In this document: positions 7,863 through 61,713 of the stretch, in pieces
Layout: each line of letters begins with the position of its first letter
How positions within the stretch are numbered: the first letter of the stretch is position 1
NCBI GenBank assembly: GCA_963818965.1
Contig: CAWFUG010000011.1
Coordinates: 352,001-416,000 of the forward strand
Origin: an uncultured Verrucomicrobiae bacterium
GTDB lineage: Bacteria > Chlamydiota > Chlamydiia > Chlamydiales > Rhabdochlamydiaceae
DNA: 64,000 bases
Direction of reading: 5' to 3'
Position numbers and translations under genes: made by a program
The notes under the pieces: model-generated
Told to the model about the DNA's origin: nothing
Databases searched by the model: none
Seen by the model: only the letters and a program-made list of their open reading frames with translations

Positions 7863-7987
7863 AATAAATAACCTTATTTTTTCGTTTTCATTCAAATATA
7901 AAACAAAACCAAAAATAAAATCAATTACTTAAACGATTAAATAAATATTAATTAACTGCGCAAAGGGCATTCCAGCAAGAAGGGATA

Positions 7988-8070
7988 TATGCAATTTCAC
8001 CACAGAGAGGAAATTCATATTAAAAAATTTCCTATCTGCGGTTTTCCATCTCTGTGGTGAAATTCAGCTA
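7988..8070. repeat. Family A element, copy 2 (degenerate)
   Basis: TATGCAATTTCACCACAGAGAGGAAATT ... AATTTCCTATCTGCGGTTTTCCATCTCTGTGGTGAAATT. Confidence 0.8.
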
Positions 8071-8088
8071 TTTATGCAACAAAGCCGA

Positions 8089-10485
8089 CTACTGAGCCGG
8101 CGGCTTTGTTGCTTCGCTCGCCTCTTTCCATTTTTTGAGGATCTCTTTTCGCATAAATGCCTTGAAATCCTTAATGAGCGTGTCTACTTCCTCTATCCAT
8201 TGCAGTCCTTCTGGGCTGCTTAAAAAGAGTTGCAACGTCTCTTCATTTTGAAAATGAAAGTCAAAGCTGTTTCGCAGTGTTTGCGCGTGAGATTTAAACC
8301 CTTCCCAAGAACTTGGGTAGACTCCGATTGCTTCAGATAGCATCTTATCTTGCCACCTCGATTCTAAAGACTCAATGAGGAGAGGGACATAGTCCAAGCT
8401 TTGCTCTATATGCTTATAATAGAGCAAAACCCTATCAGCATACGCGATGAGTAGAGGAAGATACCCCGCTGCGTTTTTAACTGAGAACTGCAAATCTTCT
8501 TGAGCCATCAACAGGGGTATATCCACTTTCCACAAGTCAATCGATTCTAAAAGATCTGCGAGGGGTTGGAACAGCTCCCTCGATCGAGTATCAGTGGCGA
8601 GGACTGGCTCGATCCCCGCAGCTTCGTAATCCTGTTCGCAATAAAGCCCCAGAGCTGGGACTGAGAAAAGGGGCCTCCCCCACTGAGAGATCAACTGAAT
8701 ATGCAACCGAGCTAAAGATAGGATCTTAGACTTGTAGGCAAATTCGAGAGGAACATTATGACTAAAATCAAAGGAGCAAAAAGCTTGTTTGATCACTTCC
8801 GCGTTAAAGGGGGCCTCCCTCCGGTAGGTTTTATGAATCAAGCTCCATAAATCAGAGACCACAGGTCCCATCGCGTCCAATAAAAAGGTCATTTCACTGC
8901 TATCTTCATTGTGGATCGCATGAAAAAGTGCCTGGATAAGACAGGAGACTTTCAATCTTTCAATCGCTTTGAGACAGGGCTCTGGAGAGCCACTATAGTG
9001 CAACGAAAAACCCTTCAATGAATTCTGAAACAGGGGTAACCGCTTCTCGAGCTCTTGCAACCATCCTCTTTGGTTTTTTCTCACAGCGATTTCCATCTCC
9101 TGGAGAATTTCAAGAGTCGCATCGATCTGGGATTTTGGCCACTCAGAGTGGCAAGAAGCACCCAAACTAAGTTCAGTGACTTTCCCGGTATTTAATTTGT
9201 TTCCAGCCCTATTTAAGTCTGCTCCATAATGGATAAGACAGGACAACCCTCGCAGTTGAAAGCTATCCGATTCAATTTTAGAGGAGGTTGTTAAATCGAC
9301 CTTAATCTCCTGATCTTCGCAGTCTATTTTGCAAACATGCAAAATAGACTTTCCATGATCTGCAACCCCCTCATAGATATAATAGAGAAGATCCCCTTGA
9401 ATCTGAATTTCCTTAATCCTACTCTGCTCAGTACAGGGGATACACGTTCCATAACGCACAGCGAGGTGTGGCATTTTTAAATCGACGACGCAACACCCCT
9501 GTTGATAAGTCGGGATAGGGGTTTTGTTAATAGGACCTGAATGGAAAAAGACGACCAAGCGATCCCCTTCCACTTTGAGCGCATTGATAGTAATATTTTC
9601 TGGAATCCAGTCGTTACTAAAACGGGCGGGGTAGAAAGGGAAGGCATTAATATTTTCCGACAGGGATTGTTCCGATCCTTCTTCTAAAGTTTGAATTACA
9701 ACACGGGCCTCATCATCCGCATAGAAAATCACATCTTCATAAACATCGAATAGCCCCGACAAACACTCGCGCAAAAGGTGCACTTCTCCCCTTTTTTCGA
9801 CTGTTTCTGTGCTTAAATCCCAAATTTCAAAATCATCAGTGGTAAAAAAGAAAAGCTCCCGATTGCGCACACGCATTCCTGAACAATCATTTGAGATCTC
9901 AGAAACGCTTCCCGTCGCCACATTCACGCAGCGCAAGAGGTCATCTGCAAAGTGAATGATCATGAGCGGAAAGCAACAGTGGGCCGCCTTTACCCGGGAA
10001 CCACTTTGATTCTGAAGATTTATCCTAGACCGGGTCTCTCCGCTAAGTCGGTTGCAAATGCAAATCTCAACATCCCCGATGAAATAAAGGGCATCCCCCT
10101 TCTGCTTGATAAAGCGGCAATTTCCCTGAAACGGTTGGATACTTACGGTCCGATGTCTCAACGTGCGAATATTATTGAGAAGCTTCTCTTGGATCTGGGC
10201 CGCTATAGCCTGGAAGACGGCATAGGGTGTTTCTAGTTTAAAATTGGGTCGATAAGCGGTAAAAAGGCAGGGATAGAACCTTTTAAGCGCGGGCAACCAA
10301 AGGAAGGGATCATTTGCAATCACTGCATAAAGGCGTTTGTCCGCACCCATGAGATGGGTGGTATCCCTTTTGTTCGGTAGCCACTGGCAAATGAGCGCCG
10401 TGAGATCCTCATGCAGCGCACCCAAATGATTAAAAGGAACCGGAGCTTGGGCAGCTCTTGGCAATCGCAATGGAGGTAAATGCAT
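8089..10485 (-). CDS. F-box-like protein, paralog 2
   Basis: LHEDLTALICQWLP..HLMGADKRLYAVIAND; shared motifs ETPYA, SGMRVR, ALKVEGDRLVVF, FSLHYSGS, PALGL, SWEGFKSHA. Confidence 0.7.
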   Translation of the reverse strand: MHLPPLRLPRAAQAPVPFNHLGALHEDLTALICQWLPNKRDTTHLMGADKRLYAVIANDPFLWLPALKRFYPCLFTAYRPNFKLETPYAVFQAIAAQIQEKLLNNIRTLRHRTVSIQPFQGNCRFIKQKGDALYFIGDVEICICNRLSGETRSRINLQNQSGSRVKAAHCCFPLMIIHFADDLLRCVNVATGSVSEISNDCSGMRVRNRELFFFTTDDFEIWDLSTETVEKRGEVHLLRECLSGLFDVYEDVIFYADDEARVVIQTLEEGSEQSLSENINAFPFYPARFSNDWIPENITINALKVEGDRLVVFFHSGPINKTPIPTYQQGCCVVDLKMPHLAVRYGTCIPCTEQSRIKEIQIQGDLLYYIYEGVADHGKSILHVCKIDCEDQEIKVDLTTSSKIESDSFQLRGLSCLIHYGADLNRAGNKLNTGKVTELSLGASCHSEWPKSQIDATLEILQEMEIAVRKNQRGWLQELEKRLPLFQNSLKGFSLHYSGSPEPCLKAIERLKVSCLIQALFHAIHNEDSSEMTFLLDAMGPVVSDLWSLIHKTYRREAPFNAEVIKQAFCSFDFSHNVPLEFAYKSKILSLARLHIQLISQWGRPLFSVPALGLYCEQDYEAAGIEPVLATDTRSRELFQPLADLLESIDLWKVDIPLLMAQEDLQFSVKNAAGYLPLLIAYADRVLLYYKHIEQSLDYVPLLIESLESRWQDKMLSEAIGVYPSSWEGFKSHAQTLRNSFDFHFQNEETLQLFLSSPEGLQWIEEVDTLIKDFKAFMRKEILKKWKEASEATKPPAQ

Positions 10486-10696
10486 AATAACAGGTTTATT
10501 TGTTGTTTCAAGCTATTAGTGGTTACTATTATGCAAAAATTGCAAATAAAATAGAATACTAATAATTATTTTAAAAAATTAGAGAACCCTCTTTTTTTGA
10601 TGGAAGGGGTATACACCGAACGCTTATACCAAACCTGGTAAAATTTTTCTTCAACTTTCGGGATTAGCTGCTAGGGCCTGTCGTCAATTGAAAGCC

Positions 10697-12970
10697 CTAA
10701 TCCCTCTCCAGTCTCCATTTTTTTAGGAGCTCTTTTCGTGTAAATGCATTGAAATCTGCGAGAAAGGCTTTTGCCTCGTCTACCCATTGGTAACCTTCTG
10801 GGCTCCTTAAAAAGAATTCTAGCATCTCTTCATTTTTAAAATGGGAAAGGAAGATCTCTTGCAGTTTTTCCGCATGAGCTTTAAATCCTTCCCAAGAAAC
10901 CGGGTAGATGCCTATTTTTTGAAATAGCCGATCCTGCCATCCCGATTCGAGGGGGTCAAGCGACGGGTAGGAGAATAACGCATTGTCAATAAGGTCGATG
11001 AGCGTCTCAAGGTCTTTTTGCACAACAAAACCATAAACCCGCCAACGCCCATAGGATGGTAGAAAATTTAGGTGAAAGAGCATTGAGCTAGAGCATGCAT
11101 GGACCTCCTTGGAGAGATCTACGAGAGGTTGGAACAGCTCCACCCATTCAGTATCGCTGGCGGATAGTGGCTCGATCCCTGCCTTTTCGTAATCCCATTC
11201 ACAATTGAGTCCAAGGGTTGGAATTGTGAAAATCTGACCACCCCATCGAGACATGAGGTCTTTGTAAAAATCGTGCACAGCGTTGAGCTTCGATAGATAA
11301 GAGATGGTGGCAAGATTCTCAAAATCAAAAGAGCAAAATGCTTCTTTTACCGTTGCCTCATGAAATGCATCGAAATGACTAAACTCCTCATGAACCCAGT
11401 GCAAAAAATCTGAGGCAACGGGGCCCATTTGATCGAGTAATGAGGCGAGTTCCTCTCCGTTCTCTTCATGAATCAGAGGCAGGAGTTTGCTGATATAAAC
11501 GGTGAGCTTCATCCTTTCAATCGTCGTGAGGCAGGGCCTTTCAGAGCCAGTATAGTGCAGGGAATAACTTCTTAACATCTGTTGCAACATAGGAGAGGGA
11601 ATCTGCTCTTCCAGAGCTTTTAAGTGCTGCATCTGTTTTTTCTTCGCAGCCGTTTGCATTTTTTCGAGAAGGGCTAGAGTCTCATCGAGAACTCCTTTTG
11701 GAAAGGAACCAGGATAGACAGCACCTAAATCAAAAACGCCGAGTGAACGCTTGCTCCCTTCCTCTGTTGGCTCTATTGTGTGGACAAAACAACGTGTTCC
11801 TTGTACTTGAAAACTCTCTATGTTTTCAAGATAACTAGCGTTAATTAAATCGACTCGAATTCCATTCCGACAATCCATTTTAGCAATAAATAAGTCACTA
11901 TAATGGTCATTCTCAGCAATGAAATACAAAAGATCGTTTCTGATTTGCATTTCCTTGATTTCCTCGTCTTCAGCACAGCTCATCGGGCTCCCATAACAGG
12001 TCTCGAGCTCTCCCTTTAAATCGACGATGCAGCAGCCATATTCAGCATTCTCCTCGCCCACCCATTTAAAAAAGACGACGAGTCGGTCGTCCTCGATTTG
12101 GAGTGCATCGATAGAAGTTTCCGTTTCTTTCCAGTCGTGACTAAACTGCGTCGGATCCAACGCGAGTGTCGAAAGGGATGGAGATTCTCCTAACTCTTGA
12201 ATCACGATCCCTTCATTAGACACATAGACAACGCTATTCTGATAAATATCGAAAAGCCCTCCTTGACATTCTTGCAGAAGAGGGGTCCTCGTCGACAGTT
12301 CGATCAAGTTACTGCTTAAGTTAAAACAAACGATCTCATTTGCTTCTTTGTCATAGAAAAAAAGCTTTCCATCACGTACGCGAGAGCCCTGACAAGACTT
12401 TGAAATGATAATCGCTTCACCCCTTTCCACATGGACGCAGTACAGCACATCATTCTCTAAATGGATGATCATCAAGGGAAAGTAAAACTGAACTGCTTTT
12501 ACCACTACAGCACCCGACTCGCTCTGAAAGGGAATGCGCTCAAGCATCTCAACTTTTGTAAGCTTCCGATTAGATGAGCAAACGGTAATGTCTGTGTTAT
12601 TGATCAAATAAAAGATCCCATTTCTCTCTTTGACAAAGCGGTAAGAGCGTTCCAAATCCAGCAGTGTTTTGGATCTGCATTTTCCACGGCAGACGCTATC
12701 TGGAATCCCCTTATAGACGTCTTTCATAACAGCTCGGTGGACAGCATACGGCGTTTCTCGCTTAAAATTAGGTGCGTAAGCGGCATAAAAGCTGGGATAC
12801 AAAACTTTAAGAGGCTCGAGCCAAGGAAAGGGATTATCCGCAATAGCTTCATAAAGGCGCTTGTCCGCCCCCATGAGACTCAGGACATCTCTTCTCGGTA
12901 GCCACTCGCAAATCAACCCTACTCCATCAGCGTGGAGATTGCTGAATGGGTTACTATTTAACGAAAACAT
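10697..12970 (-). CDS. F-box-like protein, paralog 3
   Basis: PFSNLHADGVGLICEWLPRRDVLSLMGADKRLYEAI; same shared motifs as paralogs 1 and 2. Confidence 0.7.
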   Translation of the reverse strand: MFSLNSNPFSNLHADGVGLICEWLPRRDVLSLMGADKRLYEAIADNPFPWLEPLKVLYPSFYAAYAPNFKRETPYAVHRAVMKDVYKGIPDSVCRGKCRSKTLLDLERSYRFVKERNGIFYLINNTDITVCSSNRKLTKVEMLERIPFQSESGAVVVKAVQFYFPLMIIHLENDVLYCVHVERGEAIIISKSCQGSRVRDGKLFFYDKEANEIVCFNLSSNLIELSTRTPLLQECQGGLFDIYQNSVVYVSNEGIVIQELGESPSLSTLALDPTQFSHDWKETETSIDALQIEDDRLVVFFKWVGEENAEYGCCIVDLKGELETCYGSPMSCAEDEEIKEMQIRNDLLYFIAENDHYSDLFIAKMDCRNGIRVDLINASYLENIESFQVQGTRCFVHTIEPTEEGSKRSLGVFDLGAVYPGSFPKGVLDETLALLEKMQTAAKKKQMQHLKALEEQIPSPMLQQMLRSYSLHYTGSERPCLTTIERMKLTVYISKLLPLIHEENGEELASLLDQMGPVASDFLHWVHEEFSHFDAFHEATVKEAFCSFDFENLATISYLSKLNAVHDFYKDLMSRWGGQIFTIPTLGLNCEWDYEKAGIEPLSASDTEWVELFQPLVDLSKEVHACSSSMLFHLNFLPSYGRWRVYGFVVQKDLETLIDLIDNALFSYPSLDPLESGWQDRLFQKIGIYPVSWEGFKAHAEKLQEIFLSHFKNEEMLEFFLRSPEGYQWVDEAKAFLADFNAFTRKELLKKWRLERD

Positions 12971-22235: not shown

Positions 22236-24887
22236 ATGTCATCTGACCTTTCTGTTTCTATACCCCGCCACCAGCTCATGCAATCTCATCTCTCTGCTGA
22301 TCAGATCCAAGAGCTAAAAATTTTGGAAGCGAGCGTTGTAGAGTTAGAAGAAGCACAGGAAGACTCTCCTATTTCAGATCAAGCCTTCTGTCTGGCCGTT
22401 GCAAAGATAGAAGCCATGCCGATCCTCAAAAAATTAGAGCAGTTGCCCCGTCTGCACAATGAAGAGTTCCCAGAGGGATATAACACGCTTCAAATACGCA
22501 AAAAAATTAAGAAATTCCAAGAGGTGGCTGGAGAGATACATCAAAAAGCACTGGCTCAATCATTCCATCAATTACAGGAGAGTAAAGAAAACAATCTGGA
22601 TACACTCCGAAAAGACAGAAGAAATAAACAAGCTCAACTCCGAGAGTCTATAAGAATCGAATTCCTCAATCCCGCTGCTGAGTTTTCCAAATCCCTGTTT
22701 TCCCAGGATTATCTCTTAAATGTAGATTTTGAAGACCTAAAAGTTTTGGAAGCGAGTGTTGTAGAGTTAGAAGAAGCACAGGAAGACTCTCCTCTTTCAG
22801 ATCTAGAGCTCTCTGCATCTGTTAGAAAGATGAAAAATATGCCGATCCTCAAAATAGTGGAGTCTTTGCCCAATTTATTAAATGAAGAGTGCCCAAGCGG
22901 AGATACTACCCACGAAATAATCCAAAAAGTCCACCAATTCGAAAAGCAAGTCCAAAACAACTTCGACAGAGATGTCGCTAGATTCGAGGACTTAATCGGT
23001 AAAGCAGAGAAGACAAATGACCTAGAAGAATTACAGGAGCTCATCCTCGAGATTCAAGAGCTCAATCTCGTCGCAAGAATGAAGGATTTTTCAGGAACAA
23101 AACAATTGGTACCTACCATCCAGGGTCTCGAAAAAAGAGTTTTCTCGAAAATGGAACGAATTTTAGATCGACCGGCTCCAGCTCCCTCCCCCGCCAAGCC
23201 CTTTTCCTACAAGCCAGTTAGGCCAGTACAAAACCGAACTCTCCCCCCTTCTTCTAACCCAATACGGGTTAAGCACAGCATACGAGACTCTGTGGTAGTC
23301 TCTCCCTCTTCTTCACCAGAAGAGGAAAAGACAACGGTTAGCAGCATATGGGACTACTTTTCTACCCCATCTACAAAAAAAACGAGCTCTATCTCCTCTT
23401 CTCGAAGAGTGCAAAAATCTGCCGCTTCTGAATTTGGAGTGGGTTTTCACAATAAAGGCAATAACTGCTGGGCAAATGTCCTGCTTCAAGCGATCGTACA
23501 CATCGACACCCTACGCGCTGTTTACAATACGATTGTCATTCATTATTCCGCCTCCGCTATTTCTGGTGCACGAAGGAATGCAAAGCGTCTGGGCGCTGCC
23601 TTAGAAGCCTATGATAATGCCTTACTCTTAAGAGAACCTGTTCCTCCTGAAGTCTCTCAAAATGTCCGCATAGCCTTCCACTTCTTCTCTGGAAAGCAGA
23701 TCAGTAAGTCTCATCGCGTACAGGAAGATGCGCATGAGGGTTTCACTCTATTGATGGCATTGTACGCAGGGATCATCGAAGAGCAAGGAGGAGACCTCAC
23801 TGCCAATTGCCCCCTCTATTTTACCGATGTCACGACACGATCGTGGATAAGAAAAGGCCCTAGGGAGCAAGCACGCTCTTACACATCGGATATCATAAAG
23901 ACGGGAGAAAAAACAGGGAAGACGCAACTTAACAATCCTCCCACTTACGAAATCGGCCTCAGCATGACCTCTTCCTCAAACAAACGCCCCTCATTCAATG
24001 ATCTGCTCGAAGATATATTTTGCGATAAAAATCAAACAGCACGGGCAACCTACGCCTATCCAGGCACGAATGACGCTTACGAATTCAAAATGATCAAAGA
24101 AGAAAGGACCTTTAAACAACAACCGATGGAACTCGTCGTAACCATGAAGCGTTTTTCCTATAACGAAAGAAGGGAGAGAACGCAGAAAATCACGACGAAA
24201 ATCCAAGTGCCCTTTGAACTTCAACTCCCTGGAGTCAATGAACCGCTTGAACTCGACTTTTTCTTTTCCCACAAAGGCCCCAGTGCTTCAGCGGGACATT
24301 ACATCTGCTTCTACAAAGACATTGCCGGGCGATGGATAAAATTCGACGACGAATCACCCAGCCTTCCCTCTGTGGAAGAGGTCACACAAGCGCTCCAAGA
24401 AAGCTACTGGCACCACTACAAGCGTAAAACAGAACAAGGTGCACGCCCCAACCAATTCTTCCTAGATTCAGAAGAAAATAGCTCTTCTGAGCCGGAACCT
24501 CAAGGATCCAAGCCAAACAACACGACTACGACAACACATATTCCCGCGCATCCGCAAGATGCTGCAAAAATTCTAGATGCAACCCAGCCAGACTGGAGCA
24601 CATTGCTCAGGGAAAGCACTGCGCAACTTAAAGAATCAGCTCGGCCATTCCTCAATAACGAACAAACTCCAAAAGAGGTAAAAAAAGCGGTGCAGATTAG
24701 ATTTATGCGATTGCTTTCACTGATCGGTGGTGACCCAGAAGAATCAGAAAAAAAACGGTTAACCGAGCTCAGCGATCAGTTAATTGCTGTAATTATGTCT
24801 ATGGTTCCTACAGATGATAACACCTTCCAGACTTTCGATGCTGAAATAGAAGCGCTCGGCAAAAGCATTAATTCTCGACGAGCTTGA
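22236..24887 (+). CDS. Array gene 1: duplicated N-terminal module + shared helical domain + USP (peptidase C19) deubiquitinase domain
   Basis: Cys box GFHNKGNNCWANVLLQ, QEDAHE, His box SHKGPSASAGHY..WIKFDD. Confidence 0.85.
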   Translation: MSSDLSVSIPRHQLMQSHLSADQIQELKILEASVVELEEAQEDSPISDQAFCLAVAKIEAMPILKKLEQLPRLHNEEFPEGYNTLQIRKKIKKFQEVAGEIHQKALAQSFHQLQESKENNLDTLRKDRRNKQAQLRESIRIEFLNPAAEFSKSLFSQDYLLNVDFEDLKVLEASVVELEEAQEDSPLSDLELSASVRKMKNMPILKIVESLPNLLNEECPSGDTTHEIIQKVHQFEKQVQNNFDRDVARFEDLIGKAEKTNDLEELQELILEIQELNLVARMKDFSGTKQLVPTIQGLEKRVFSKMERILDRPAPAPSPAKPFSYKPVRPVQNRTLPPSSNPIRVKHSIRDSVVVSPSSSPEEEKTTVSSIWDYFSTPSTKKTSSISSSRRVQKSAASEFGVGFHNKGNNCWANVLLQAIVHIDTLRAVYNTIVIHYSASAISGARRNAKRLGAALEAYDNALLLREPVPPEVSQNVRIAFHFFSGKQISKSHRVQEDAHEGFTLLMALYAGIIEEQGGDLTANCPLYFTDVTTRSWIRKGPREQARSYTSDIIKTGEKTGKTQLNNPPTYEIGLSMTSSSNKRPSFNDLLEDIFCDKNQTARATYAYPGTNDAYEFKMIKEERTFKQQPMELVVTMKRFSYNERRERTQKITTKIQVPFELQLPGVNEPLELDFFFSHKGPSASAGHYICFYKDIAGRWIKFDDESPSLPSVEEVTQALQESYWHHYKRKTEQGARPNQFFLDSEENSSSEPEPQGSKPNNTTTTTHIPAHPQDAAKILDATQPDWSTLLRESTAQLKESARPFLNNEQTPKEVKKAVQIRFMRLLSLIGGDPEESEKKRLTELSDQLIAVIMSMVPTDDNTFQTFDAEIEALGKSINSRRA

Positions 24888-24949
24888 TAAGAGCCAATCC
24901 CAGTAAAAAATTTACTGGGATTGGTTGAGAGATTGTAGATAGGCTCTTA
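24888..24949. repeat. Family C mini-element (TAA-GAGCC...GGCTC-TTA) with internal hairpin
   Basis: Hairpin CCAATCCCAGTAAA/TTTACTGGGATTGG; terminal 22 bp identical to 50350-50371. Confidence 0.65.
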
Positions 24950-25041
24950 GGATTTTCATTTTCAAAAATGAACGCCCTGTGCCATTCTGCCCGTCTCGTT
25001 TTCATCTTGTAGTAACTTTATTGAAAAATAGGAAAAAATAG

Positions 25042-26280
25042 ATGCAAGCTTTACCTATCTCAGGACCTTCTCCCTCCCCTACTCAATGCCCAGTATTCGA
25101 TAGACTCTATGACAGGGCAAAGACCTTAGAAACTAGCGACCCCCTTCTTTTCTGTAAATGCGTCAAGCAAATACATGACCTAAAGGTCCACCGTACATCA
25201 AAAGAAACCGATCTTCTAGAACGCTACCACGAGCTGCGAAATAAAGCGCAAATACTCATAGACCACGACATCGAAAAACTGGAGATGTGGAGCAATTGCG
25301 CAAGTCAGACAAATGATATTAATCAATTAGGAGATCTCGTTACAAAAATAAAAGATCTCAATCTCTCCGAAAAATTAAAACTCTTCAAGATGCCGGTAAA
25401 TCTCAGGGATGTCCCCAACCACATCCTAGATCAATTGAATGTAAAGCTCGTTGTACAATGGGAAAACCTCACCGCCATCCATTGGGTAACACTCGCTAAC
25501 GAACAATCCAATCCCAAGCGAAAAGCGATCTTGCATTCCGTTTTCGCTCAATGGGATGAAGCCTGGAGGAGAACTCCCTCTGCAGGCCCTCTCCAACAGC
25601 GTCTAGCAGATTTGACAATACGTGCCAATCAGTACCTCGCTGACAGCGGATCCGTTCCACCTGATTGCGATGATTTATTTAACGAAATCACTCGTGCCAT
25701 ACTAGAGGATCTAGCCGATATTCTCGAGGAGGACACCCTCTATCTCAACGATCTATGTAAAACACAAACAAACATCGACCTGCTTTTTATTCTCAACGAA
25801 GAGATGTCTCCCGCTGTAGCAAAAAAGTATATAGAAAAAATTTTGGCAAACCAGCTCGAAGGAGCAACCCAAAAGACCACTACCCCTCTTTTACTAGACT
25901 CCAACAAAAAGATGCCCCTCACTGAGACAGAAAAACACGCGACAAAAAAGAATATAGGAAACATTTTGGTAAAACAGCTCGAAGGAGCAACCCAAAAGAC
26001 CACTACCCCTCTTTTACTAGACTCCAACAAAAAGATGCCCCTCACTGAGACAGAGAAACACCTGGACAAACTTTCAATCAAAAATTTTCTTGAGATCCGA
26101 GATGCAGCCAAAGAAATTAATCGAAAAGCGCCTATAGAGGACCCTTCTTCTGTTTTACTAGAAACCTTAGAAATCCAAACGCAATTTTTCCACGCGATGT
26201 TTAAATTCACACAATCCGCTATCTCCTATGATGAATCACAACGACTGGATCAGCAGCCCCTTCGACGATTAAAAAAATAA
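25042..26280 (+). CDS. Array gene 2: hypothetical effector-like protein
   Basis: Shared domain IDHDIEKLE..TNDINQL..LSEKL; internal 123-bp (41 aa) duplication. Confidence 0.75.
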   Translation: MQALPISGPSPSPTQCPVFDRLYDRAKTLETSDPLLFCKCVKQIHDLKVHRTSKETDLLERYHELRNKAQILIDHDIEKLEMWSNCASQTNDINQLGDLVTKIKDLNLSEKLKLFKMPVNLRDVPNHILDQLNVKLVVQWENLTAIHWVTLANEQSNPKRKAILHSVFAQWDEAWRRTPSAGPLQQRLADLTIRANQYLADSGSVPPDCDDLFNEITRAILEDLADILEEDTLYLNDLCKTQTNIDLLFILNEEMSPAVAKKYIEKILANQLEGATQKTTTPLLLDSNKKMPLTETEKHATKKNIGNILVKQLEGATQKTTTPLLLDSNKKMPLTETEKHLDKLSIKNFLEIRDAAKEINRKAPIEDPSSVLLETLEIQTQFFHAMFKFTQSAISYDESQRLDQQPLRRLKK

Positions 26281-26322
26281 AAACTGTTTACAAACATAAA
26301 AAACCAACTAGGAACACCCGTT

Positions 26323-27822
26323 ATGTCCTCAACACCCATAAGTTCATCTACAGTGCGTTACTACCGATCAGTGGCCGATGCTGAATTGATCGATTTGCAA
26401 GTGTGCCGATCCTCCTGCGATAGCGCGAGTAAAGCTCTAACGGATATTGAGTTTTATCAAACAGCCCGAGTCATCCATCGCTACTGCCGCGGCCTATTAA
26501 AAAATCTCACACGATACTTGCCCGAAGAACTGACCCGGGTAGGATTCTATGAAGTTCTAGATAAAGCCAATGAGATCATCCGAGAAGCTCAAAGAAGGAT
26601 CGATCGAGATGTAACAAAATTCGAAGATCTGGCTACTCAGGGAAATGACACCGATGACATCTCAATCCTGCAAGACATCATCTCCCAAATCGAAGACCTC
26701 GACATTTCTGAAAAATTAGGTTACTTCAAGGCGAAAAAAGATCTTAAGGTAATGCCCGATCAGCTTCTAGAAAAATACCACGCAAGGATCACTGTCCTGC
26801 AGAGTCACGTCGGGTATATAATCGATCGATCACCCGCCGCACGACTACCCGACAACAAAACGAGAGAGGAGCGTCCTATAAGAGTTATCCCTCCAGAATT
26901 TCTCTTGAAAGACTCGGTAGAAAAAACGCTCGCTATCTCAAAACTGTGGCAACAGCTCTTGGATGAGACAGACGAGCCTGAAGTACGCCCTTCCATGCGG
27001 ATCGTTCAAGAGCTGTGGAATGGAGCATGGCAGAACTATCCGGAGATTCATGAAACATTGCAATCTTTGGCAATTGATTATTTCACAACTGTAGATAAGT
27101 GTGCAAAAGAAAAGGACTACAGCCCACTTAGGGAAGCTATAGACACAACACTAGAAACGCTATATGAATCTATCGATGTTGAGTTACACGGCCTCAATCA
27201 AGTAGCAATGGCTACATTAAAACTGAACCCTATTCGTGGGTTCCAGTTTTATAATTACTTCGATGTAATTGACTTTGAGAAATCTTGGAATAAAGCGCAA
27301 AGCTTAGATGATATAGAGAAATGGATACAAGTATGGCTAGCCGACGCAGAGGCCTTAAGTCCGCAAGAAGTCCGACAAAAAGTCCAAGAGAAACAACCAA
27401 GACTAAAACTTACCCTCGAAGCCACCTTAGTGGAGCTGCTAAAAATTCGGAACCTACAGTACGCACAGATCAAGGAGATGTTGGCAAAAGCAACCCAAAA
27501 GGCATCGCCCGCACCGGAACCTATTGCACAAGTAGCTTATCTGCCCGATCCACAAGCATTGAAAGCTGAATCTGAAGAGATCGAAGAGATGTTCCGAAAA
27601 ATCGCGGAAGACAACACTAAAACCTTAGAAGAACAAGCGAGAAAATTCGAAGAGCAAAGAAACCATAGGTCTGAGGAAAGCAAAACGAGGATTCAGAAGA
27701 CCCTGGAGCGCCAAAAAGAAGACCTACAGAACATAGTAGACACCCACAGAAAAACCTCCGAACTCTCTACCGAAGACACAGCAGCTACAGCAGGGTCTTC
27801 CTCTCTAAAGGACAAATCTTGA
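26323..27822 (+). CDS. Array gene 3: hypothetical effector-like protein with C-terminal coiled coil
   Basis: Shared domain IDRDVTKFEDLA..TDDISILQ..ISEKLGYFKAKKDLK; Ser-rich N-terminus. Confidence 0.78.
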   Translation: MSSTPISSSTVRYYRSVADAELIDLQVCRSSCDSASKALTDIEFYQTARVIHRYCRGLLKNLTRYLPEELTRVGFYEVLDKANEIIREAQRRIDRDVTKFEDLATQGNDTDDISILQDIISQIEDLDISEKLGYFKAKKDLKVMPDQLLEKYHARITVLQSHVGYIIDRSPAARLPDNKTREERPIRVIPPEFLLKDSVEKTLAISKLWQQLLDETDEPEVRPSMRIVQELWNGAWQNYPEIHETLQSLAIDYFTTVDKCAKEKDYSPLREAIDTTLETLYESIDVELHGLNQVAMATLKLNPIRGFQFYNYFDVIDFEKSWNKAQSLDDIEKWIQVWLADAEALSPQEVRQKVQEKQPRLKLTLEATLVELLKIRNLQYAQIKEMLAKATQKASPAPEPIAQVAYLPDPQALKAESEEIEEMFRKIAEDNTKTLEEQARKFEEQRNHRSEESKTRIQKTLERQKEDLQNIVDTHRKTSELSTEDTAATAGSSSLKDKS

Positions 27823-27890
27823 AGAGGGGGCTCCTTAAACTTTTTTTTTACAAAACAGGTAACTAAAAGAAATAATTACAAAAAACAAAA

Positions 27891-27919
27891 TCGCCTAAAA
27901 TCACATAAACAACTATAAT
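27891..27919 (+). promoter_or_regulatory. Putative promoter of array gene 4
   Basis: TCGCCT-17 bp-TATAAT preceded by an A-tract; same layout at 32362-32390. Confidence 0.55.
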
Positions 27920-27975
27920 AAAGCACAGAAAAACTAAAACCAATGCGTCTTTAAAGAAAATAGGAGACAACCGTT

Positions 27976-29928
27976 ATGTCAGGTGTACACAACTCTTCGC
28001 AAGTTTCATCTTATCCATCCTTTAATCTACAGGATCCAAAATACCTCGCAGGCTTGCAACGTTGTGCAGATTTGTGTGCCCAGGTATCCAGCAGTAAAAA
28101 TGAAAATGATGTTGATTTTTTTAAAGACGTCAAAGAAATCGATCGGTTCTCACGCAGCACATTAAAAGAACTTTACGAATGCGGCACGCCCCAAGAGCTC
28201 ATGGACTTGGGATTCTTTATGGTTCAAGGTCAAGTCAATAGAATCATCAAACAGGCTCAAAATATAATCGATCGAAATATAGCAACTCTCGAAGATCTAG
28301 CTGGTCGAGCAGAGGCTACAGATGACCTCGAGACTCTGCAGGAGATCGTCCGCCAAATCACAGCGCTTAAGATTTCTGAAAAATTACAGTACTCCAGAGC
28401 AAAAAAAGATCTGAAGACAGTGCCCGATCGCCTCCTAGAAAAATACAATGCGAAGATCACGACGCTTCAGAGTCAACAACCCGCGCCCGCAGTCCCCCTA
28501 GCTCTCCCACAAGTTCCCTTAGAGACAGCTCAACTCACTGCTTCCAAAACACAAGCGCTGCATCCTAAGCCCCGGCGAACTCTGCCTAAACACCCGGTCT
28601 CAGTACACCATCCCGTTCCAGTACAACACTCTATCCCAGGACACCACCCGGTCCCAGTACACCAAAAAGGCACAAACCTATTAGAGCCTCACCATTGGCA
28701 ACAAGTGCAGCAGCACCTGGATGCGATTACCGATCTGCCAGGAAAAATTAGATTTTTTCGGCAGGAAACAGATAAAGCTCTAAATTCAGCCAGCTTTACT
28801 GTTCTACAGGGATTAGCGATCGATCCACAATATCGTGATAGGGCTCAGTCCACTGACTTCACATTCGGAATATCCGGCGACCTATGCGTTCCTGGTGCTT
28901 TAACGATTATAAACCATTGTATGCAGCTGGCAAAAACCTGTGCTGAGCAACAGCTCCCCGGGAGCCCCGATTTCGAAATCTACATGAAGACGAAAATATT
29001 CGGCATCTTGGTGTCTATTTGCAGATCGGGGAATTTCGAAGCATCGTGTGGTCACAAAAGTCATGTCCTATATCCTCTCTTTGAGAAGATGTGGGTATTC
29101 CAAGAGTATAACCAACCGAGCATCTACGATACGATGTCGAAACTCGAGGGGCATGACCAACCGACAGCTTCCACAACCCACACACAACAGCCTGAACTAA
29201 AACCCGAAAAACCAACCCGAACAGATAAAAAAGTCCCTGACAGTGGAAGCATACTGGCTAACTGGACTCCAGACAACCAACCATCCGTTCCCATGATCGA
29301 GATGTGCTGGGATGCTCTCTCCAAAAAGATACCCCTAAATTCTCCTCAGCAGACCCTCTCCTATCAACTGAAAGGGTTTTGGCAAAAAGTGCAACTGCAA
29401 TCTAACTCTTATACAAAAAGTAACGCTTTAAAACTAATAGCTAAAGAGTACTTACTGGGCCTAGAGATCATCTTTGTAAAGAAAAGTAATGGTTTCTACT
29501 CATTTGACGATGCCGTTCATACTTTCCTAACGAATCTGAGCACTGAATTGAACTTTAGCATAACAGCATACTTCAGAGCATGTTCGTGTTATCACGACAA
29601 AGTAAAGACCTTTGTGAATTTGAATTTTCTATTCGAGGATACGCATCCTCTAGCGATTGCTACTGGTGATAAGTTCCTGAAAGAAATAAATTGTACTTAT
29701 CTCCCCTTCAAATGGAACGACGGTGCATTACAGCTCGAGTGGGAGAAGCATCGAGAAAGATTCCTTGCCGCTCAAGAGGACCTCGAAGAGGAAAATCCTT
29801 TAAACGCTGATCCAGCGGTTCAGATAGAAATGATAAAATGTCTAACGGAACGGTGCGCTCTCATCAGCAAAATCGTAAGGGGAGCTGGGATAGACCCATC
29901 TTTTTTGCATAAAAGAGGACTGGTTTAG
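27976..29928 (+). CDS. Array gene 4: hypothetical effector-like protein
   Basis: Shared N-terminal domain, HPV-repeat linker, unique middle domain, C-terminal WDALSKKIP module. Confidence 0.78.
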   Translation: MSGVHNSSQVSSYPSFNLQDPKYLAGLQRCADLCAQVSSSKNENDVDFFKDVKEIDRFSRSTLKELYECGTPQELMDLGFFMVQGQVNRIIKQAQNIIDRNIATLEDLAGRAEATDDLETLQEIVRQITALKISEKLQYSRAKKDLKTVPDRLLEKYNAKITTLQSQQPAPAVPLALPQVPLETAQLTASKTQALHPKPRRTLPKHPVSVHHPVPVQHSIPGHHPVPVHQKGTNLLEPHHWQQVQQHLDAITDLPGKIRFFRQETDKALNSASFTVLQGLAIDPQYRDRAQSTDFTFGISGDLCVPGALTIINHCMQLAKTCAEQQLPGSPDFEIYMKTKIFGILVSICRSGNFEASCGHKSHVLYPLFEKMWVFQEYNQPSIYDTMSKLEGHDQPTASTTHTQQPELKPEKPTRTDKKVPDSGSILANWTPDNQPSVPMIEMCWDALSKKIPLNSPQQTLSYQLKGFWQKVQLQSNSYTKSNALKLIAKEYLLGLEIIFVKKSNGFYSFDDAVHTFLTNLSTELNFSITAYFRACSCYHDKVKTFVNLNFLFEDTHPLAIATGDKFLKEINCTYLPFKWNDGALQLEWEKHRERFLAAQEDLEEENPLNADPAVQIEMIKCLTERCALISKIVRGAGIDPSFLHKRGLV

Positions 29929-29992
29929 GTTTTTAAAAAGAGCACAGACAAACTAAAACAAAAAAAATTAAAGAAATTAAGAGGTAATCTTC

Positions 29993-32137
29993 ATGTCATA
30001 TCGACACGACGCTATAAGTAAACCCATTGACCCCTTTGCTTCAAAATACCAGGAGGCATTGCAACGTTGCTTCGATTTGTTTAACGAAGCAGATGCTGCT
30101 GAAACGCAAAAGGATGACATTGGTTTTTATAGAGCGGCCAAAGAAATTAATCAGCTCGCCCACGGCCCGTTAGGTAAGATTGCCCAACGTGTCTCACGCT
30201 CCCAAGTCCGTCAGCTGGACGAAGATTTGACGACGCGGATGAACTTGGATTGGGATGACTTCTGCGAAAAAGCCGATAGCGTAGTCACACGCGCTCAAAA
30301 AAAAATCGATCGCGCTGTAGCAAAACTCCAAACACTGGCGAATCAGGCAGACGCCACAGATGACCTCGAGACCCTGCAGAAGATCGTCCACAAAATCACA
30401 ACTCTCAATACTTCTGAAAAATTAAGTTTCTTCAAGGCAAAAAAAGATCTCAAGGCAATGCCCGCGAACATTCTAGACAAATACAATGCAAAGATCGTCG
30501 TAATTAAAGGCCAACTACCCCACTCAGATCCCGCACAGACAGCGCCCTCCCCCTTTCCCCAAAATGCAATACAAGTGCCGCAGCAGATCCTCCCCCAACA
30601 CGTTGCGCCTTCAACGACACCCCCTGCATCAAAAAATACGCAAACGACGACGACAACAACAGCCCCGGCTGTTCATGAGGACCATGAGATCAAATCCACA
30701 CTTAATTCTTGGACAGAAACTGACCAACTATCCGTTCCCAATATAGAAAAGCTCTGGGATGCTCTATCCAAAAAGATACCCCACAACTCTCCTGAGCAAT
30801 TTTTCTCTTATACATTGAGAGGATCATGGAAAAAGGCAGTGCAAATTCGATTTGAATCTTCTCAAGAACTTGACGACTTGAAAAACATAGCTAAGGAATA
30901 CTTGACTGCGCTGGAGACTATCTTCATACAGAATAAACAGTGGTACGGATTTGACAGTTCCGCTTGCGAGTTACTAAAGAGCCTGAGCGACACTCTCGCC
31001 TCTGAATTACAGAACCGTGTGAACGGCTATAAAAACATGCAGAAACTCCACCCAAAAAAAATGGCGAAGCTTTACCTGTCCCGCATAAATTTTGTAAGTT
31101 CTAACTACTACCCAGAACAATCTGGTGCTGAACTGAAGCGCGAATGGGATAATGGCCTAAGGGACTCGTGGAATGCAAGTTTCAAAAGGTGCTATCAGGC
31201 CAGGACTAGCCTCAACAGGTTACAAAAAGAGGATAACATAGAGGCGTGGTTAGAATGGTTAAATTCTAAGAATGAACAATACACGCTCGTCAAAACACTT
31301 ATAGATTTAGCTATAGTCGACTTAAATGCAAACAGCGCTGCAGTACAGAGCCCATTACCCCCCGCAGGTCTCACACAGACAACACAAGTCCCTGTTTCCA
31401 ATAAAAAAACACAAGTGCCACAAACGATCCCAAGCGCGCCAGTATCTGACTTAAAAGATGCTCTGGCAGCTGACAAAAACCAGAACTTCAGAATACAATG
31501 CACACTCGCTAGCTGGACCAAAGTCACTCCACCAACATCTCGCGCAATAGAACTAGTCTGGGATGAGTTATCTGAAGAGTTGACACTCCGCCCTCCTGTT
31601 TCTGCTAATGGAGCTCGTTCAGATCAGCTTAAACTCCTATGGGGACAAGCACTTCAAGCTCATCCTTTCCCAGACAATTATGAGTTACAAGAGATGGCTA
31701 AGAAATATTTAAGTAACCTGCGTTTTATTGTATTTGAACAAAAGGACGATTCCGCATTTAATGATGCTGCTTGCTTCTTACTGGGGAACCTGCGCAGCAG
31801 TCTTACATCCAGCATAGACTCCTTGATCCAAGCATATAGACGCAAACGGATCACAGACCGACAAGTTGCCAATCTCAATTTCATGTGCGAGACTGAGGGG
31901 CTTAAGCCCGTGTCTGATCAATTCTGTCCAGAACGAGCTAGTCACCAACTAAAGCTCATGTGGGTCCAGGAGCTGAGATCTTCGTGGAATGCGAATCAAA
32001 ACAGGCTCATTGCAGCCAACGCACGCTTCAACAATAACTTGGATATCTTGGGTAATAATCCAGATAAGTTATTAGAAATGGTAAGCTGTCTCGCTGAACG
32101 GCACAAACTCATGGAGACACTCATAGCGTGGTGCTAA
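29993..32137 (+). CDS. Array gene 5: hypothetical effector-like protein
   Basis: Shared N-terminal domain plus two copies of the SWT..IE..WD.LS module separated by P/T/Q linkers. Confidence 0.78.
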   Translation: MSYRHDAISKPIDPFASKYQEALQRCFDLFNEADAAETQKDDIGFYRAAKEINQLAHGPLGKIAQRVSRSQVRQLDEDLTTRMNLDWDDFCEKADSVVTRAQKKIDRAVAKLQTLANQADATDDLETLQKIVHKITTLNTSEKLSFFKAKKDLKAMPANILDKYNAKIVVIKGQLPHSDPAQTAPSPFPQNAIQVPQQILPQHVAPSTTPPASKNTQTTTTTTAPAVHEDHEIKSTLNSWTETDQLSVPNIEKLWDALSKKIPHNSPEQFFSYTLRGSWKKAVQIRFESSQELDDLKNIAKEYLTALETIFIQNKQWYGFDSSACELLKSLSDTLASELQNRVNGYKNMQKLHPKKMAKLYLSRINFVSSNYYPEQSGAELKREWDNGLRDSWNASFKRCYQARTSLNRLQKEDNIEAWLEWLNSKNEQYTLVKTLIDLAIVDLNANSAAVQSPLPPAGLTQTTQVPVSNKKTQVPQTIPSAPVSDLKDALAADKNQNFRIQCTLASWTKVTPPTSRAIELVWDELSEELTLRPPVSANGARSDQLKLLWGQALQAHPFPDNYELQEMAKKYLSNLRFIVFEQKDDSAFNDAACFLLGNLRSSLTSSIDSLIQAYRRKRITDRQVANLNFMCETEGLKPVSDQFCPERASHQLKLMWVQELRSSWNANQNRLIAANARFNNNLDILGNNPDKLLEMVSCLAERHKLMETLIAWC

Positions 32138-32181
32138 GCTCGCGGGGTATTATAAAAGTCGCAGCTGCGGTCCTATAAGCC

Positions 32182-32222
32182 AAGGGCTGAAAGGCTAAAA
32201 ATAGCCTTTCAGCCCTTCTTTA
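32182..32222 (+). terminator. Rho-independent terminator
   Basis: 16-bp stem AAGGGCTGAAAGGCTA/TAGCCTTTCAGCCCTT followed by CTTTT. Confidence 0.75.
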
Positions 32223-32361
32223 TATCCAAATGATCCACATATCTCCCTCTCTTATTGTGCAAACATCACCCAAACGACCTGTCTATCCACCCACAAGCAC
32301 TTAAATTTCAGCTGGGTATAAAAACCCGTTAAAAATAAATTAAAACCCCAAAAAAACAAAA

Positions 32362-32390
32362 TCGCTTAAAAACACACAATCACCTATAAT
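32362..32390 (+). promoter_or_regulatory. Putative promoter of array gene 6
   Basis: TCGCTT-17 bp-TATAAT; homologous to 27891-27919. Confidence 0.55.
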
Positions 32391-32449
32391 AGAGCTCAGA
32401 CAAACTAAATCTTAGACGTTTTTAAAGAAAAAATTAGGAGATAATCTTC

Positions 32450-34561
32450 ATGGCATATCTATACGACAATGTTAGCGGACGTACATCTTTTGACCCCTAT
32501 GCTCGAAAATACCAGATAGCATTGCAAAGTTGCGCTAATTTTTGTGAAAGCGCAGACCGCGCTGAAAAGGAAAAGGATGACATTGGTTTTTATAGAATAG
32601 TCAAAGAAATCAATCGACTCGTCCGCGGACCATTAAATAATCTTCACGAGAACGCCACACCCCAACAACTCAACAAGCTGAAATTCGATGAAGTGAAGGA
32701 AAAAGCTGATAAAGTAATCGCACGCGCTCGAGACAAAATCGATTGCACTGTAGTAAAACTTCAAAAACTGGCGAATCGGGCAGATGCTACAGATGACCTC
32801 GAGACCCTGCAGAAGATCGTCCACAAAATCACAACCCTCAATACTTCTGAAAAATTAAGTTTCTTCAAGGCAAAAAAAGATCTCAAGGCAATGCCCGCGA
32901 ACATCCTAGAAAAATACAAGGCAAAGATCGTCGTACTTGAAAGCCAACTACCTGACTCAGGTGCCACACAGACAGCGCACCCCCCTTTTTCCAACAACCA
33001 AACGCAAGCGCCGCAGCAGATCCTCCCCCAACACGTTGCGCCTTCAACGACACCCCCTGCATCAAAAAATACGCAAACGACGACGACAACAACAGCATCA
33101 GTTGCTTACGAGGACCACGAGATCAGACAACTACTCAATTGTTGGACAAACATTAACCAACCGTCCGTTTCCAAGATAGAGGAGCTCTGGGATGCTCTAT
33201 CCCAAAAGATACCCGAGAATTCTACTGAGCGATCTCATTCTTATGAATTGAGAAAATTATGGAAAGAGATAGTGGAAATTCGATTGGAGCATTCTCAAGA
33301 ACTTAACGATTTGAATAACCTGGCTAAGACATACTTGAATGAGCTGGAGCATATTTTCTTACAGGAGAGTTCTTGGTACTCATTTGATGCGACCGCTTGC
33401 AATTTAATGAGGAGGCTGAGCTCAACTCTCTACAACAGCCCACAAGCTGCCGACTCTGAATTGATGCACTTACTAAAAACGGTTATGGAAATCGAAAAAT
33501 CCCGACCAGAACACACAGCTAGTTTTCAGTGCCTGTTCCCCCTAACAGTTCTCTCTGAGAACTACTACCCACAAAAATGTAGCGATCAACTGAGGTCCGA
33601 GTGGGACAGTGGCTTAAGATCTAAGTGGAATGAGAGTGTGCAAAGATGCCGTTTTGCCCAGAGGATCGTCGATAAATTACAAGGCAGCAATGATCGAGAA
33701 GCATTGTTAGAACACGTGGCGTCTTTGATTGAACAAAACAAGGTCTTCAAAACATTCTTAGAAGCAGCGGGGATAGATTTGAATGCAAATAGCGCTGCCC
33801 CACAGAGCCCACCACCTGCACACTCTGCACCAAAAAAGTCATCCAAAGCTGAAAAGAACTCTCCCTCTGCACAGACTGCTCCAGCCGCTCCTAGTGCCAA
33901 ACCAGTCGTCTCCATACCAGACTTTAAGACTGCTCTCAGTCAGCTGAAGAGCGCCCCGGATAAAGGAGCTAATGGAATCGGATCCCTCTGGTATGCGCTT
34001 GCCCAACAGGCGGCAAAGCGACTCAAGCTCCCCGATTGTATGGTCAGCGGTCTTTCTTTCCGAGCAGTGTTTGAAAACGTCGTAGCTGGCACAAAAACAC
34101 AGTGGACGGCTGCATGGGATCAAGCAGAAGATTCTCAAGAGCGCGAACAATTGTTAAACGATGCCCATGTGCACATCGAGAGTTTGATTGACGCGCTCTA
34201 TCTCGGTAGCTATGCCTCATTTCTTTCAAAGACACGGAAAATGATAGCGACTCAAAGTGCTACTCTTGAAGATAAGATCGAGAGGCTCACGAAAAAGCTC
34301 CAGAAAAAGAACTTTGTGTGGCCACAGCGCAATGCAGAAGTACAGCCAGGGAATTCAGAGATGCAACAACTAGCTCTTCTCGATAAGAGAGTGCAACGTC
34401 TCGATGAGGAAAAAGACCAACTGGGACAGCTCCACCTGAACTCAAGTCTCGCTGACATAATCGCCCGCGATTCCAACGACGTGCGCCAGATGCACCTTCG
34501 TTCAGAACAGTATAATATTCTGCGAAAAATCGCTGCAACATATGGGATCCAAACTCCTTAA
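32450..34561 (+). CDS. Array gene 6: hypothetical effector-like protein
   Basis: Shared N-terminal domain (locally near-identical DNA to gene 5), WDALS module, divergent C-terminus. Confidence 0.78.
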   Translation: MAYLYDNVSGRTSFDPYARKYQIALQSCANFCESADRAEKEKDDIGFYRIVKEINRLVRGPLNNLHENATPQQLNKLKFDEVKEKADKVIARARDKIDCTVVKLQKLANRADATDDLETLQKIVHKITTLNTSEKLSFFKAKKDLKAMPANILEKYKAKIVVLESQLPDSGATQTAHPPFSNNQTQAPQQILPQHVAPSTTPPASKNTQTTTTTTASVAYEDHEIRQLLNCWTNINQPSVSKIEELWDALSQKIPENSTERSHSYELRKLWKEIVEIRLEHSQELNDLNNLAKTYLNELEHIFLQESSWYSFDATACNLMRRLSSTLYNSPQAADSELMHLLKTVMEIEKSRPEHTASFQCLFPLTVLSENYYPQKCSDQLRSEWDSGLRSKWNESVQRCRFAQRIVDKLQGSNDREALLEHVASLIEQNKVFKTFLEAAGIDLNANSAAPQSPPPAHSAPKKSSKAEKNSPSAQTAPAAPSAKPVVSIPDFKTALSQLKSAPDKGANGIGSLWYALAQQAAKRLKLPDCMVSGLSFRAVFENVVAGTKTQWTAAWDQAEDSQEREQLLNDAHVHIESLIDALYLGSYASFLSKTRKMIATQSATLEDKIERLTKKLQKKNFVWPQRNAEVQPGNSEMQQLALLDKRVQRLDEEKDQLGQLHLNSSLADIIARDSNDVRQMHLRSEQYNILRKIAATYGIQTP

Positions 34562-34580: not shown

Positions 34581-34606
34581 AGGGGGGCTCTTGTAAGAGC
34601 CCCCCT
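34581..34606. terminator. Probable bidirectional terminator
   Basis: AGGGGGGCTCTT-GT-AAGAGCCCCCCT between convergent array gene 6 and rseP. Confidence 0.7.
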
Positions 34607-61592: not shown

Positions 61593-61713
61593 AAGATACC
61601 TCCTTTTTTCTAGGATTGGTCGCGATCGAGGGGGAGATTCTATTTCAGCCGGCGGATTGGTTTCTACCGAAAAAGAAATTATACCACTTGAGTATGAGTG
61701 TTTGGCAATAACC

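Follow-up and report, generated by a model that had tools for sequence, protein, structure and literature searches.

Six co-oriented genes between nagZ and rseP of an uncultured Rhabdochlamydiaceae bacterium share an undescribed domain of about 150 amino acids (aa). We analyzed this array within a 64,000-nucleotide stretch of contig CAWFUG010000011.1 (hereafter the window), and its sequence features point to a lineage-specific family of putative type III effectors that are probably secreted. The array's history very likely combines an anchoring USP deubiquitinase gene, tandem duplication, and N-terminal reassortment. The shared domain has roughly an even chance of acting on the host side as a targeting or adaptor unit.

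All six plus-strand open reading frames (ORFs; 883, 412, 499, 650, 714, and 703 aa) are intact and were confirmed, together with their minus-strand neighbors GH3/nagZ and M50-PDZ/rseP, as an earlier first-pass annotation of this DNA had described them. GC content across the array is 39–47% per kb, against 50–54% in the flanks. The shared domain is present in every gene (pairwise BLASTP E values of 1e-6 to 1e-38), its alignment contains the core motif that had been claimed, and a profile built from the six copies retrieved independent copies elsewhere in the genome (E = 4.5e-36, 5.8e-25, 4.3e-16, 5.3e-12, and 2.4e-10; 13,355 ORFs); the likeness among the six domains is therefore not due to chance. 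A D and an L are invariant and A, L, K, L, and F nearly so, with no visible catalytic pattern, and the motif positions are retained in copies whose synonymous sites are saturated. The domain lies immediately behind a leader in 10 of the 11 genes of this genome that carry it in full. Its supposed N-terminal placement is thus correct for genes 2–6 and fails for gene 1, in which it is internal (aa 163–313) and preceded by a duplicate of its own first half.

An AlphaFold2 model of the gene 4 copy, based on a 13-sequence alignment, was confident (predicted local confidence, pLDDT, 91.8; predicted global fold score, pTM, 0.80) and all-helical, with helices at residues 3–21, 27–51, 62–96, 100–113, and 131–149 and no beta strand. 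Because structural matches to the model fall on either residues 1–81 or residues 78–150, the fold is consistent with two three-helix bundles that have the long middle helix in common. A separate candidate, that bundle 1 and bundle 2 are ancient repeats, was unsupported (probability 6%). Neither the domain nor a second recurrent module of the array (module M, below) matched Pfam or NCBIfam above cut-off; a PDB sequence search gave no significant match (best E = 0.02–0.03), a protein atlas no usable match, and Foldseek no match at E ≤ 0.001 against the PDB and a viral library. The first-pass annotation had not recognized the domain and had proposed such modelling, which yielded a good model and assigned neither a family nor a specific fold. 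Z scores from a structural aligner stayed within the range generic for helical bundles, with maxima of 10.3 for the domain and 8.8 for module M. The best row for the domain, GGA1 GAT (Z 10.3, root-mean-square deviation (rmsd) 2.3, 79 aligned residues, 9% identity), was tied with CNOT3 (Z 10.2) within this generic range, and MIT rows comprised Spartin (Z 7.5, rmsd 3.2, 81 aligned) and LIP5 (Z 7.6, rmsd 2.5, 70 aligned). The GAT (PF03127) and MIT (PF04212) profiles had no match in the source genome at E ≤ 10. The 4HBM profile (PF11647) matched no domain member, its sole match in the source genome being an unrelated gene at E = 0.35, and 4HBM was absent from the structural rows listed for the domain, whose model has two three-helix bundles.

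Within the source genome, the whole domain occurs in 11 genes at five loci, namely the six array genes and five others. One of these carries LRR cargo (C9:107414), one an orphan cargo without a Pfam match (C2:167439), and one F-box-TPR cargo (C8:74177), while two have one and a half to two domain copies followed by F-box and WD-like parts (C9:406366 and C9:408992). Bundle 1 alone is found in at least four further ORFs, as the leading part of three F-box-TPR genes and as a stand-alone 97-aa ORF (C8:78286), and a profile seeded independently with only these four sequences converged on the array family. C10 has two further, weaker copies of bundle 1, C11:26056 contains pieces of bundle 2, and the domain or part of it is doubled within three genes. 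In the region C8:68453–78603, the 97-aa bundle-1 ORF is clustered with three F-box-TPR genes, of which one has both bundles and the other two have bundle 1 alone.

Beyond this genome, the domain is nearly confined to one lineage, and it evolves fast. Extending the profile search to other Chlamydiota, as had been suggested, gave no match at E ≤ 0.001 in 40 relatives (among them the single same-genus genome, of 89% completeness), in 128 family genomes, or in 399 order genomes (one not scored); a few matches at E = 0.004–0.009 look like chance. Among 1.84 billion representative proteins there were 14 matches, 11 of them from the source genome or at least 82% identical and three distant ones from outside (P0013, P0014, and P0016), in one of which the domain precedes an F-box-like stretch recognized by eye only. 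Related assemblies hold shortened variants (P0007–P0009 and P0012), which may be assembly errors. None of 303 candidates from a metagenome DNA-pattern scan was confirmed, a plasmid tblastn search gave no match, and of the sequencing runs no RNA holder was listed, while four DNA runs contained short scattered pieces, many 99–100% identical and none spanning the array. A literature search, in which most subscription papers and supplements were not covered, returned no description of the domain. The orphan-cargo protein (C2:167439–169475) has a close variant, P0010, from which it differs at 19 of 40 residues in a bundle-1 patch (aa 41–80) and at 1–6 elsewhere; such a hypervariable patch may resemble the behavior of a host-contact surface.

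The cargo inside the array is less varied than first claimed. Gene 1 alone has a recognizable activity: it is a predicted USP deubiquitinase, as had been annotated (PF00443, E = 3e-22, over cut-off, aa 402–714), with a Cys box (C411), a QxD motif (QED at 496), a His box (H688), and a third catalytic residue (D704), and without a hydrophobic segment (maximum 19-residue hydropathy 1.2). Genes 2–6 mostly carry versions of one helical module. This module M, of about 220 aa, has a single copy each in genes 4 and 6 and two copies in gene 5, in keeping with the one or two copies reported earlier, and is absent from the rest of the genome; gene 5 was the sole match when longer proteins were searched. 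Its model is all-helical (pLDDT 66) without a specific structural match. The cargo of gene 3, previously taken for a coiled coil, is probably for the most part a divergent half of module M: its middle aligns to the first half of that module (105 columns; score 24.8, where 250 control segments reached at most 21.0), and in its C-terminal helix 45% of the residues are charged and the heptads are weak (best a/d hydrophobic fraction 0.29). The middle of gene 2 resembles that of gene 3 (z = 5.6) and not module M directly. A profile test gave no support for module M in the gene 6 C-terminus, the gene 2 middle, or the middle of the C2 protein. Gene 2 also contains a 123-bp tandem duplication (window 25820–26061, 95% identical) that adds an extra 41-aa repeat. 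The P/T/Q/H-rich linkers that had been described are evident in genes 1, 4, 5, and 6 (44–66% P/T/Q/H/S) and not in genes 2 and 3 (23–30%).

Real cargo swapping is seen mainly outside the array, among LRR, F-box-TPR, F-box-WD-like, and orphan cargo, so that the notion of interchangeable activities survives for this wider family, the array itself having one identifiable activity. In C9:107414, the match to the closest LRR paralogs sets in at residue 7 of those paralogs, only past the domain and linker, and paralogs of the F-box-WD-like cargo start directly at the F-box, without the domain. The domain is an optional addition to its cargo, since of 23 F-box ORFs only 5 contain the module or a piece of it; homologous N-termini sit on non-homologous C-termini, and relatives of the cargo lack them. 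In a tree, three dispersed copies grouped with genes 2–6 apart from gene 1 (95/93 support), and a single clade for the array was marginally rejected (approximately unbiased (AU) test, p = 0.040). Synonymous divergence (dS) between the C2 orphan and genes 5–6 is about 0.5, against 1.7 to saturated between genes 5–6 and genes 1–2, and at unsaturated synonymous sites 46 of 53 codons are identical between the orphan and genes 5–6, where 20.7 were expected. Genes 4, 5, and 6 have 5' untranslated DNA in common, to which the DNA upstream of the C2 orphan is more weakly similar. This pattern fits copying of 5' blocks, that is, terminal reassortment, in which promoters reportedly move together with the N-terminus. 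The closest paralogs of the domain-bearing LRR cargo are two near-identical LRR genes at C2:22665–25276, each apparently split over two overlapping or neighboring frames.

The locus itself had been described as an insertion. A homolog of the gene 1 USP adjoins rseP in 13 of 21 chlamydial rseP loci (three distant non-chlamydial matches were left out), 11 of these lying between rseP and nagZ, and neither the domain nor module M was found at any of the 21 loci. Ca. Rhabdochlamydia and Ca. Acheromyda records are among the closest relatives by rseP, so that this gene, too, makes the bacterium a probable member of the Rhabdochlamydiaceae. At E ≤ 0.001 the gene 1 USP had matches in 78 of 128 family genomes, 28 of which fell below 1e-30. 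Since the USP stands beside rseP in relatives that lack both modules, gene 1 is an old anchor and genes 2–6 are lineage-specific growth, to which alone the term insertion applies. The USP orthologs have an N-terminal region of about 100 aa, and this region may, with near even odds, be the source of bundle 2. A profile-profile comparison with 20 of 29 ortholog N-termini (nine were of another N-terminal type or redundant) is suggestive only (probability 48%, E = 1.8e-4, 34 columns), the match being reached by 0 of 100 block shuffles; against this origin, a profile search in the opposite direction failed to recover the domain, and none of 29 pairwise tests exceeded z = 2.7. For gene conversion of bundle 2, a dip between genes 5 and 6 was suggestive and a pooled test not significant (p = 0.10). 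USP relatives of one genus (L075, L076, L087, L088, L092, and L095) have an unrelated N-terminal region of about 175 aa, so that exchange of the USP front end has also happened in another part of the family. In relatives, effector-like genes of differing kinds have accumulated on either side of nagZ (L022 3472–7540, L023 2540–7846, and L044 12313–17256), comprising a USP plus F-box-WD40, three LRR-like ORFs recognized by eye, and a paralog pair; the surroundings of nagZ in relatives are an insertion hotspot.

The chlamydial type III context assumed at the outset is in place, as the source genome encodes a non-flagellar type III secretion system with SctV over the TIGR01399 cut-off, a YscJ-family protein, and three CesT-family chaperones; the labels Slc1, Scc1, Scc4, and CopN are assigned here to genes of this genome. 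The first 19 residues of the 11 full-domain proteins, which lie outside the conserved domain, are S/T/P-rich and hydrophobic-poor (p about 0.001 and 0.0002 against 848 crude genes), composition being only a proxy and 5 of the 11 individually falling below the 70th percentile. Effector status is further supported because the cargo is of eukaryote type, and in Simkania USPs work as active deubiquitinases (PMC10643670). In related F-box families of chlamydiae, secretion needed no more than the first 20 codons (PMC4209131).

The module could instead aid secretion from the bacterial side, as a chaperone-binding or translocation-timing domain, which we consider unlikely. It resembles chaperone-binding regions in length and in placement, since it follows the leader directly in all full-domain genes except gene 1, and a Slc1-like chaperone is conserved in 58 of 60 family genomes (83–92% identity). 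There is also precedent in the folded client beside its chaperone in VecA:VepA (PMC13466201) and in the N-terminal translocation domain, about 140 aa long, of Salmonella effectors (PMC2885629). However, class I chaperone-binding regions usually wrap the chaperone in extended form (PMC13466201), whereas the module is predicted to be compact and all-helical (in a model of the free domain; the bound form may differ). The chaperone is strongly conserved across the family, yet the domain was not found in its 128 genomes; most F-box and LRR paralogs lack the domain, which moreover occupies an internal position in gene 1 and is duplicated within three genes. Given the compact model and the optional presence of the domain on the same cargo, the chaperone-binding role offered in the first-pass annotation has become less likely. 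A complex prediction for a Slc1-like dimer with gene 4 aa 1–168 (score 0.11, mark 0.32) is evidence for neither side.

We therefore prefer a host-side role, within the following scheme. The family USP gene beside rseP was very likely the anchor next to which genes 2–6 arose by tandem duplication with module gain or loss. At other loci, LRR, F-box-TPR, F-box-WD-like, and orphan genes that already existed very likely received copies of the 5' block of leader, domain, and linker. The unstructured, S/T/P-rich first ~15–20 residues would act as the secretion signal. After delivery, the folded two-bundle module may serve as an address or adaptor that binds a host membrane or protein surface, positioning there the USP (ubiquitin-removing), F-box (ubiquitin-ligase-recruiting), or helical cargo. 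Several observations weigh against this scheme. The tree contains long branches and its AU test gave a marginal result, and the likeness among genes 3–6 is largely a matter of recent duplication; genes 5 and 6 are recent paralogs with 77% DNA identity across ~1 kb. Of 36 pairs, 11 have dS below 1, and in these the ratio of nonsynonymous to synonymous divergence (dN/dS), crudely estimated, is 0.58–1.25, a range that weak constraint would explain no less than diversifying selection. The Pfam, NCBIfam, PDB, and Foldseek searches gave no sequence or specific fold match to a known targeting domain, and because the net charge of the domain ranges from strongly acidic (gene 1) to basic (gene 6), the copies have no common lipid-binding charge.

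These high dN/dS values also favor an explanation by neutral hitch-hiking, in which a stable helical block is a mere spacer that travels with promoter, ribosome site, and secretion leader, and the array reflects birth-and-death drift. The lineage restriction, the common 5' untranslated DNA, and the shortened variants (if not assembly errors) agree with it, and non-adaptive expansion has been suggested for chlamydial F-box families (PMC4209131). We judge it improbable in view of the six intact frames, the motif positions kept despite saturated synonymous sites, the duplication of the domain inside three genes, and its retention in the three distant outside proteins, including the one with an F-box-like stretch. 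That the module is an effector domain with its own host target in bipartite proteins, as in AvrRps4-N/HopK1-N, where a common 133-aa N-terminal part acts as effector (PMC5895054), would suit the stand-alone 97-aa bundle-1 ORF, but that ORF may be a relic and the invariant residues form no visible catalytic pattern, making this highly improbable.

A more specific form of the targeting role, that the module is a newly arisen GAT/MIT-like mimic, a shared address label reading ubiquitin or an ESCRT-type host surface, we regard as a long shot. The module would then have been built in one lineage from the USP N-terminal helical region and a second bundle. If true, ubiquitin-removing and ubiquitin-adding effectors would be aimed at one compartment, and the birth and spread of a new effector-targeting domain would be visible in one genome.

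The six genes probably do not form one operon, because stem-loops lie 3' of genes 1, 5, and 6 and a promoter-like 5' region is duplicated at genes 4 and 6 (z = 22.9); a promoter and terminator scan was at chance level overall. Features are listed in Table 1.

Table 1. Coordinates of genes, modules, and candidate transcription signals of the array (positions in the window).
Feature	Position	Strand	Description
Gene 1	22236..24887	+	883 aa: bundle-1 duplicate, shared domain, linker, predicted USP deubiquitinase, helical tail; positional ortholog of a USP gene widespread in the family
Gene 1 bundle-1 internal duplicate	22299..22535	+	aa 22–100; 74% DNA identity, dS 0.45
Gene 1 shared two-bundle domain	22722..23174	+	aa 163–313; array copy diverging most
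Gene 1 USP (PF00443) catalytic domain	23439..24377	+	Cys411, His688, Asp704
Inverted repeat 3' of gene 1	24894..24924	.	terminator-like; spotted by eye, missed by scan
Gene 2	25042..26280	+	412 aa: shared domain, helical segment resembling gene 3 middle, 41-aa tandem duplication
Gene 2 shared domain	25075..25470	+	bundle 1 shortened
Gene 3	26323..27822	+	499 aa: shared domain, probable divergent module M half (aa ~203–310), charged C-terminal helix
Gene 3 shared domain	26374..26814	+	
Promoter-like element 5' of gene 4	27891..27919	+	17-nt spacer, TATAAT; duplicated 5' of gene 6
Gene 4	27976..29928	+	650 aa: shared domain, H/P-rich linker, unique middle, module M
Gene 4 shared domain	28030..28479	+	modelled copy: two three-helix bundles, long helix in common, pLDDT 91.8
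Gene 4 module M	29236..29910	+	
Gene 5	29993..32137	+	714 aa: shared domain, T-rich linker, two module M copies
Gene 5 shared domain	30035..30517	+	
Gene 5 module M copy a	30677..31327	+	modelled all-helical, pLDDT 66
Gene 5 module M copy b	31478..32134	+	
Terminator-like stem 3' of gene 5	32182..32217	+	16 bp
Promoter-like element 5' of gene 6	32362..32390	+	
Gene 6	32450..34561	+	703 aa: shared domain, linker, module M, unique C-terminal helical region
Gene 6 shared domain	32498..32950	+	
Gene 6 module M	33110..33784	+	
Inverted repeat between convergent gene 6 and rseP	34581..34606	.	terminator-like; spotted by eye

Elsewhere in the window, three adjacent low-GC ORFs on the minus strand (5547–12970; 782, 798, and 757 aa) have no Pfam match, and two of them are distant paralogs of the F-box-WD-like cargo that start at an F-box-like stretch, without the shared domain; they form a probable second effector array. 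LRR proteins encoded on the minus strand at 46557–47822 and 60144–61739, the first with a weak F-box-like match, are probable further effectors.

Targeting determinants of environmental-chlamydia effectors are almost unknown, and this module is small, confidently folded, and undescribed. Cargo with and without the module, one- and two-bundle forms, and a stand-alone copy provide natural controls that make its role directly testable. The family is also a compact case of N-terminal reshuffling in Chlamydiota, and the USP gene that many Rhabdochlamydiaceae keep next to rseP widens the set of bacterial USPs, of which few have been characterized. The design principle is already known, and confinement to one uncultured lineage limits the module's reach.

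Among known systems, terminal reassortment (Stavrinides et al. 2006, as cited in PMC6460904, PMC7406222, and PMC5895054) describes chimeras in which an effector 5' end is fused to new coding sequence. As here, N-terminal parts are common to otherwise unrelated effectors; unlike the short signal described there, the unit here is a folded two-bundle domain of ~150 aa, near-confined to one chlamydial lineage, with a tandem array and bundle-level shuffling. Similar in size is the ~140-aa N-terminal translocation domain common to Salmonella SseJ, SspH1/2, SlrP, SifA/B, and SseI, which likewise precedes diverse cargo, including LRR and ubiquitin-system domains, and which in SspH2 and SseI also serves membrane targeting (PMC2885629, PMC3417404). 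In contrast, the genes described here are clustered, and the Salmonella domain did not appear as a match in our Pfam, NCBIfam, PDB-sequence, or 1.84-billion-protein searches or as a fold match, no direct pairwise comparison having been made. The 4HBM (PF11647) and BteA-like targeting domains are, like our module, small helical bundles common to unrelated catalytic domains (PMC3417404), whereas our module has predicted three-helix bundles, no PF11647 match, and a charge that is not consistently basic. The NEX and PEX families of Neochlamydia and Protochlamydia show, as here, lineage-specific birth-and-death expansion, tandem arrays, F-box/LRR/TPR cargo, and type III signals in the first 20 codons; their common N-terminal module, as described, is the eukaryote-like F-box, U-box, or BTB itself (PMC4209131), whereas here an unnamed bacterial module stands ahead of the F-box and also of the USP. 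Gene 1 can be likened by family to SnUSP1-3 of Simkania negevensis, chlamydial USP-family deubiquitinases with intact catalytic residues, two of which cleave chains without linkage preference (PMC10643670); it differs from them in lacking a hydrophobic segment and in carrying the new module. The module would thus work like the families with a common N-terminal domain and expand like NEX/PEX, and it belongs demonstrably to none of them; what is new here is an undescribed, lineage-restricted module that follows a known design.

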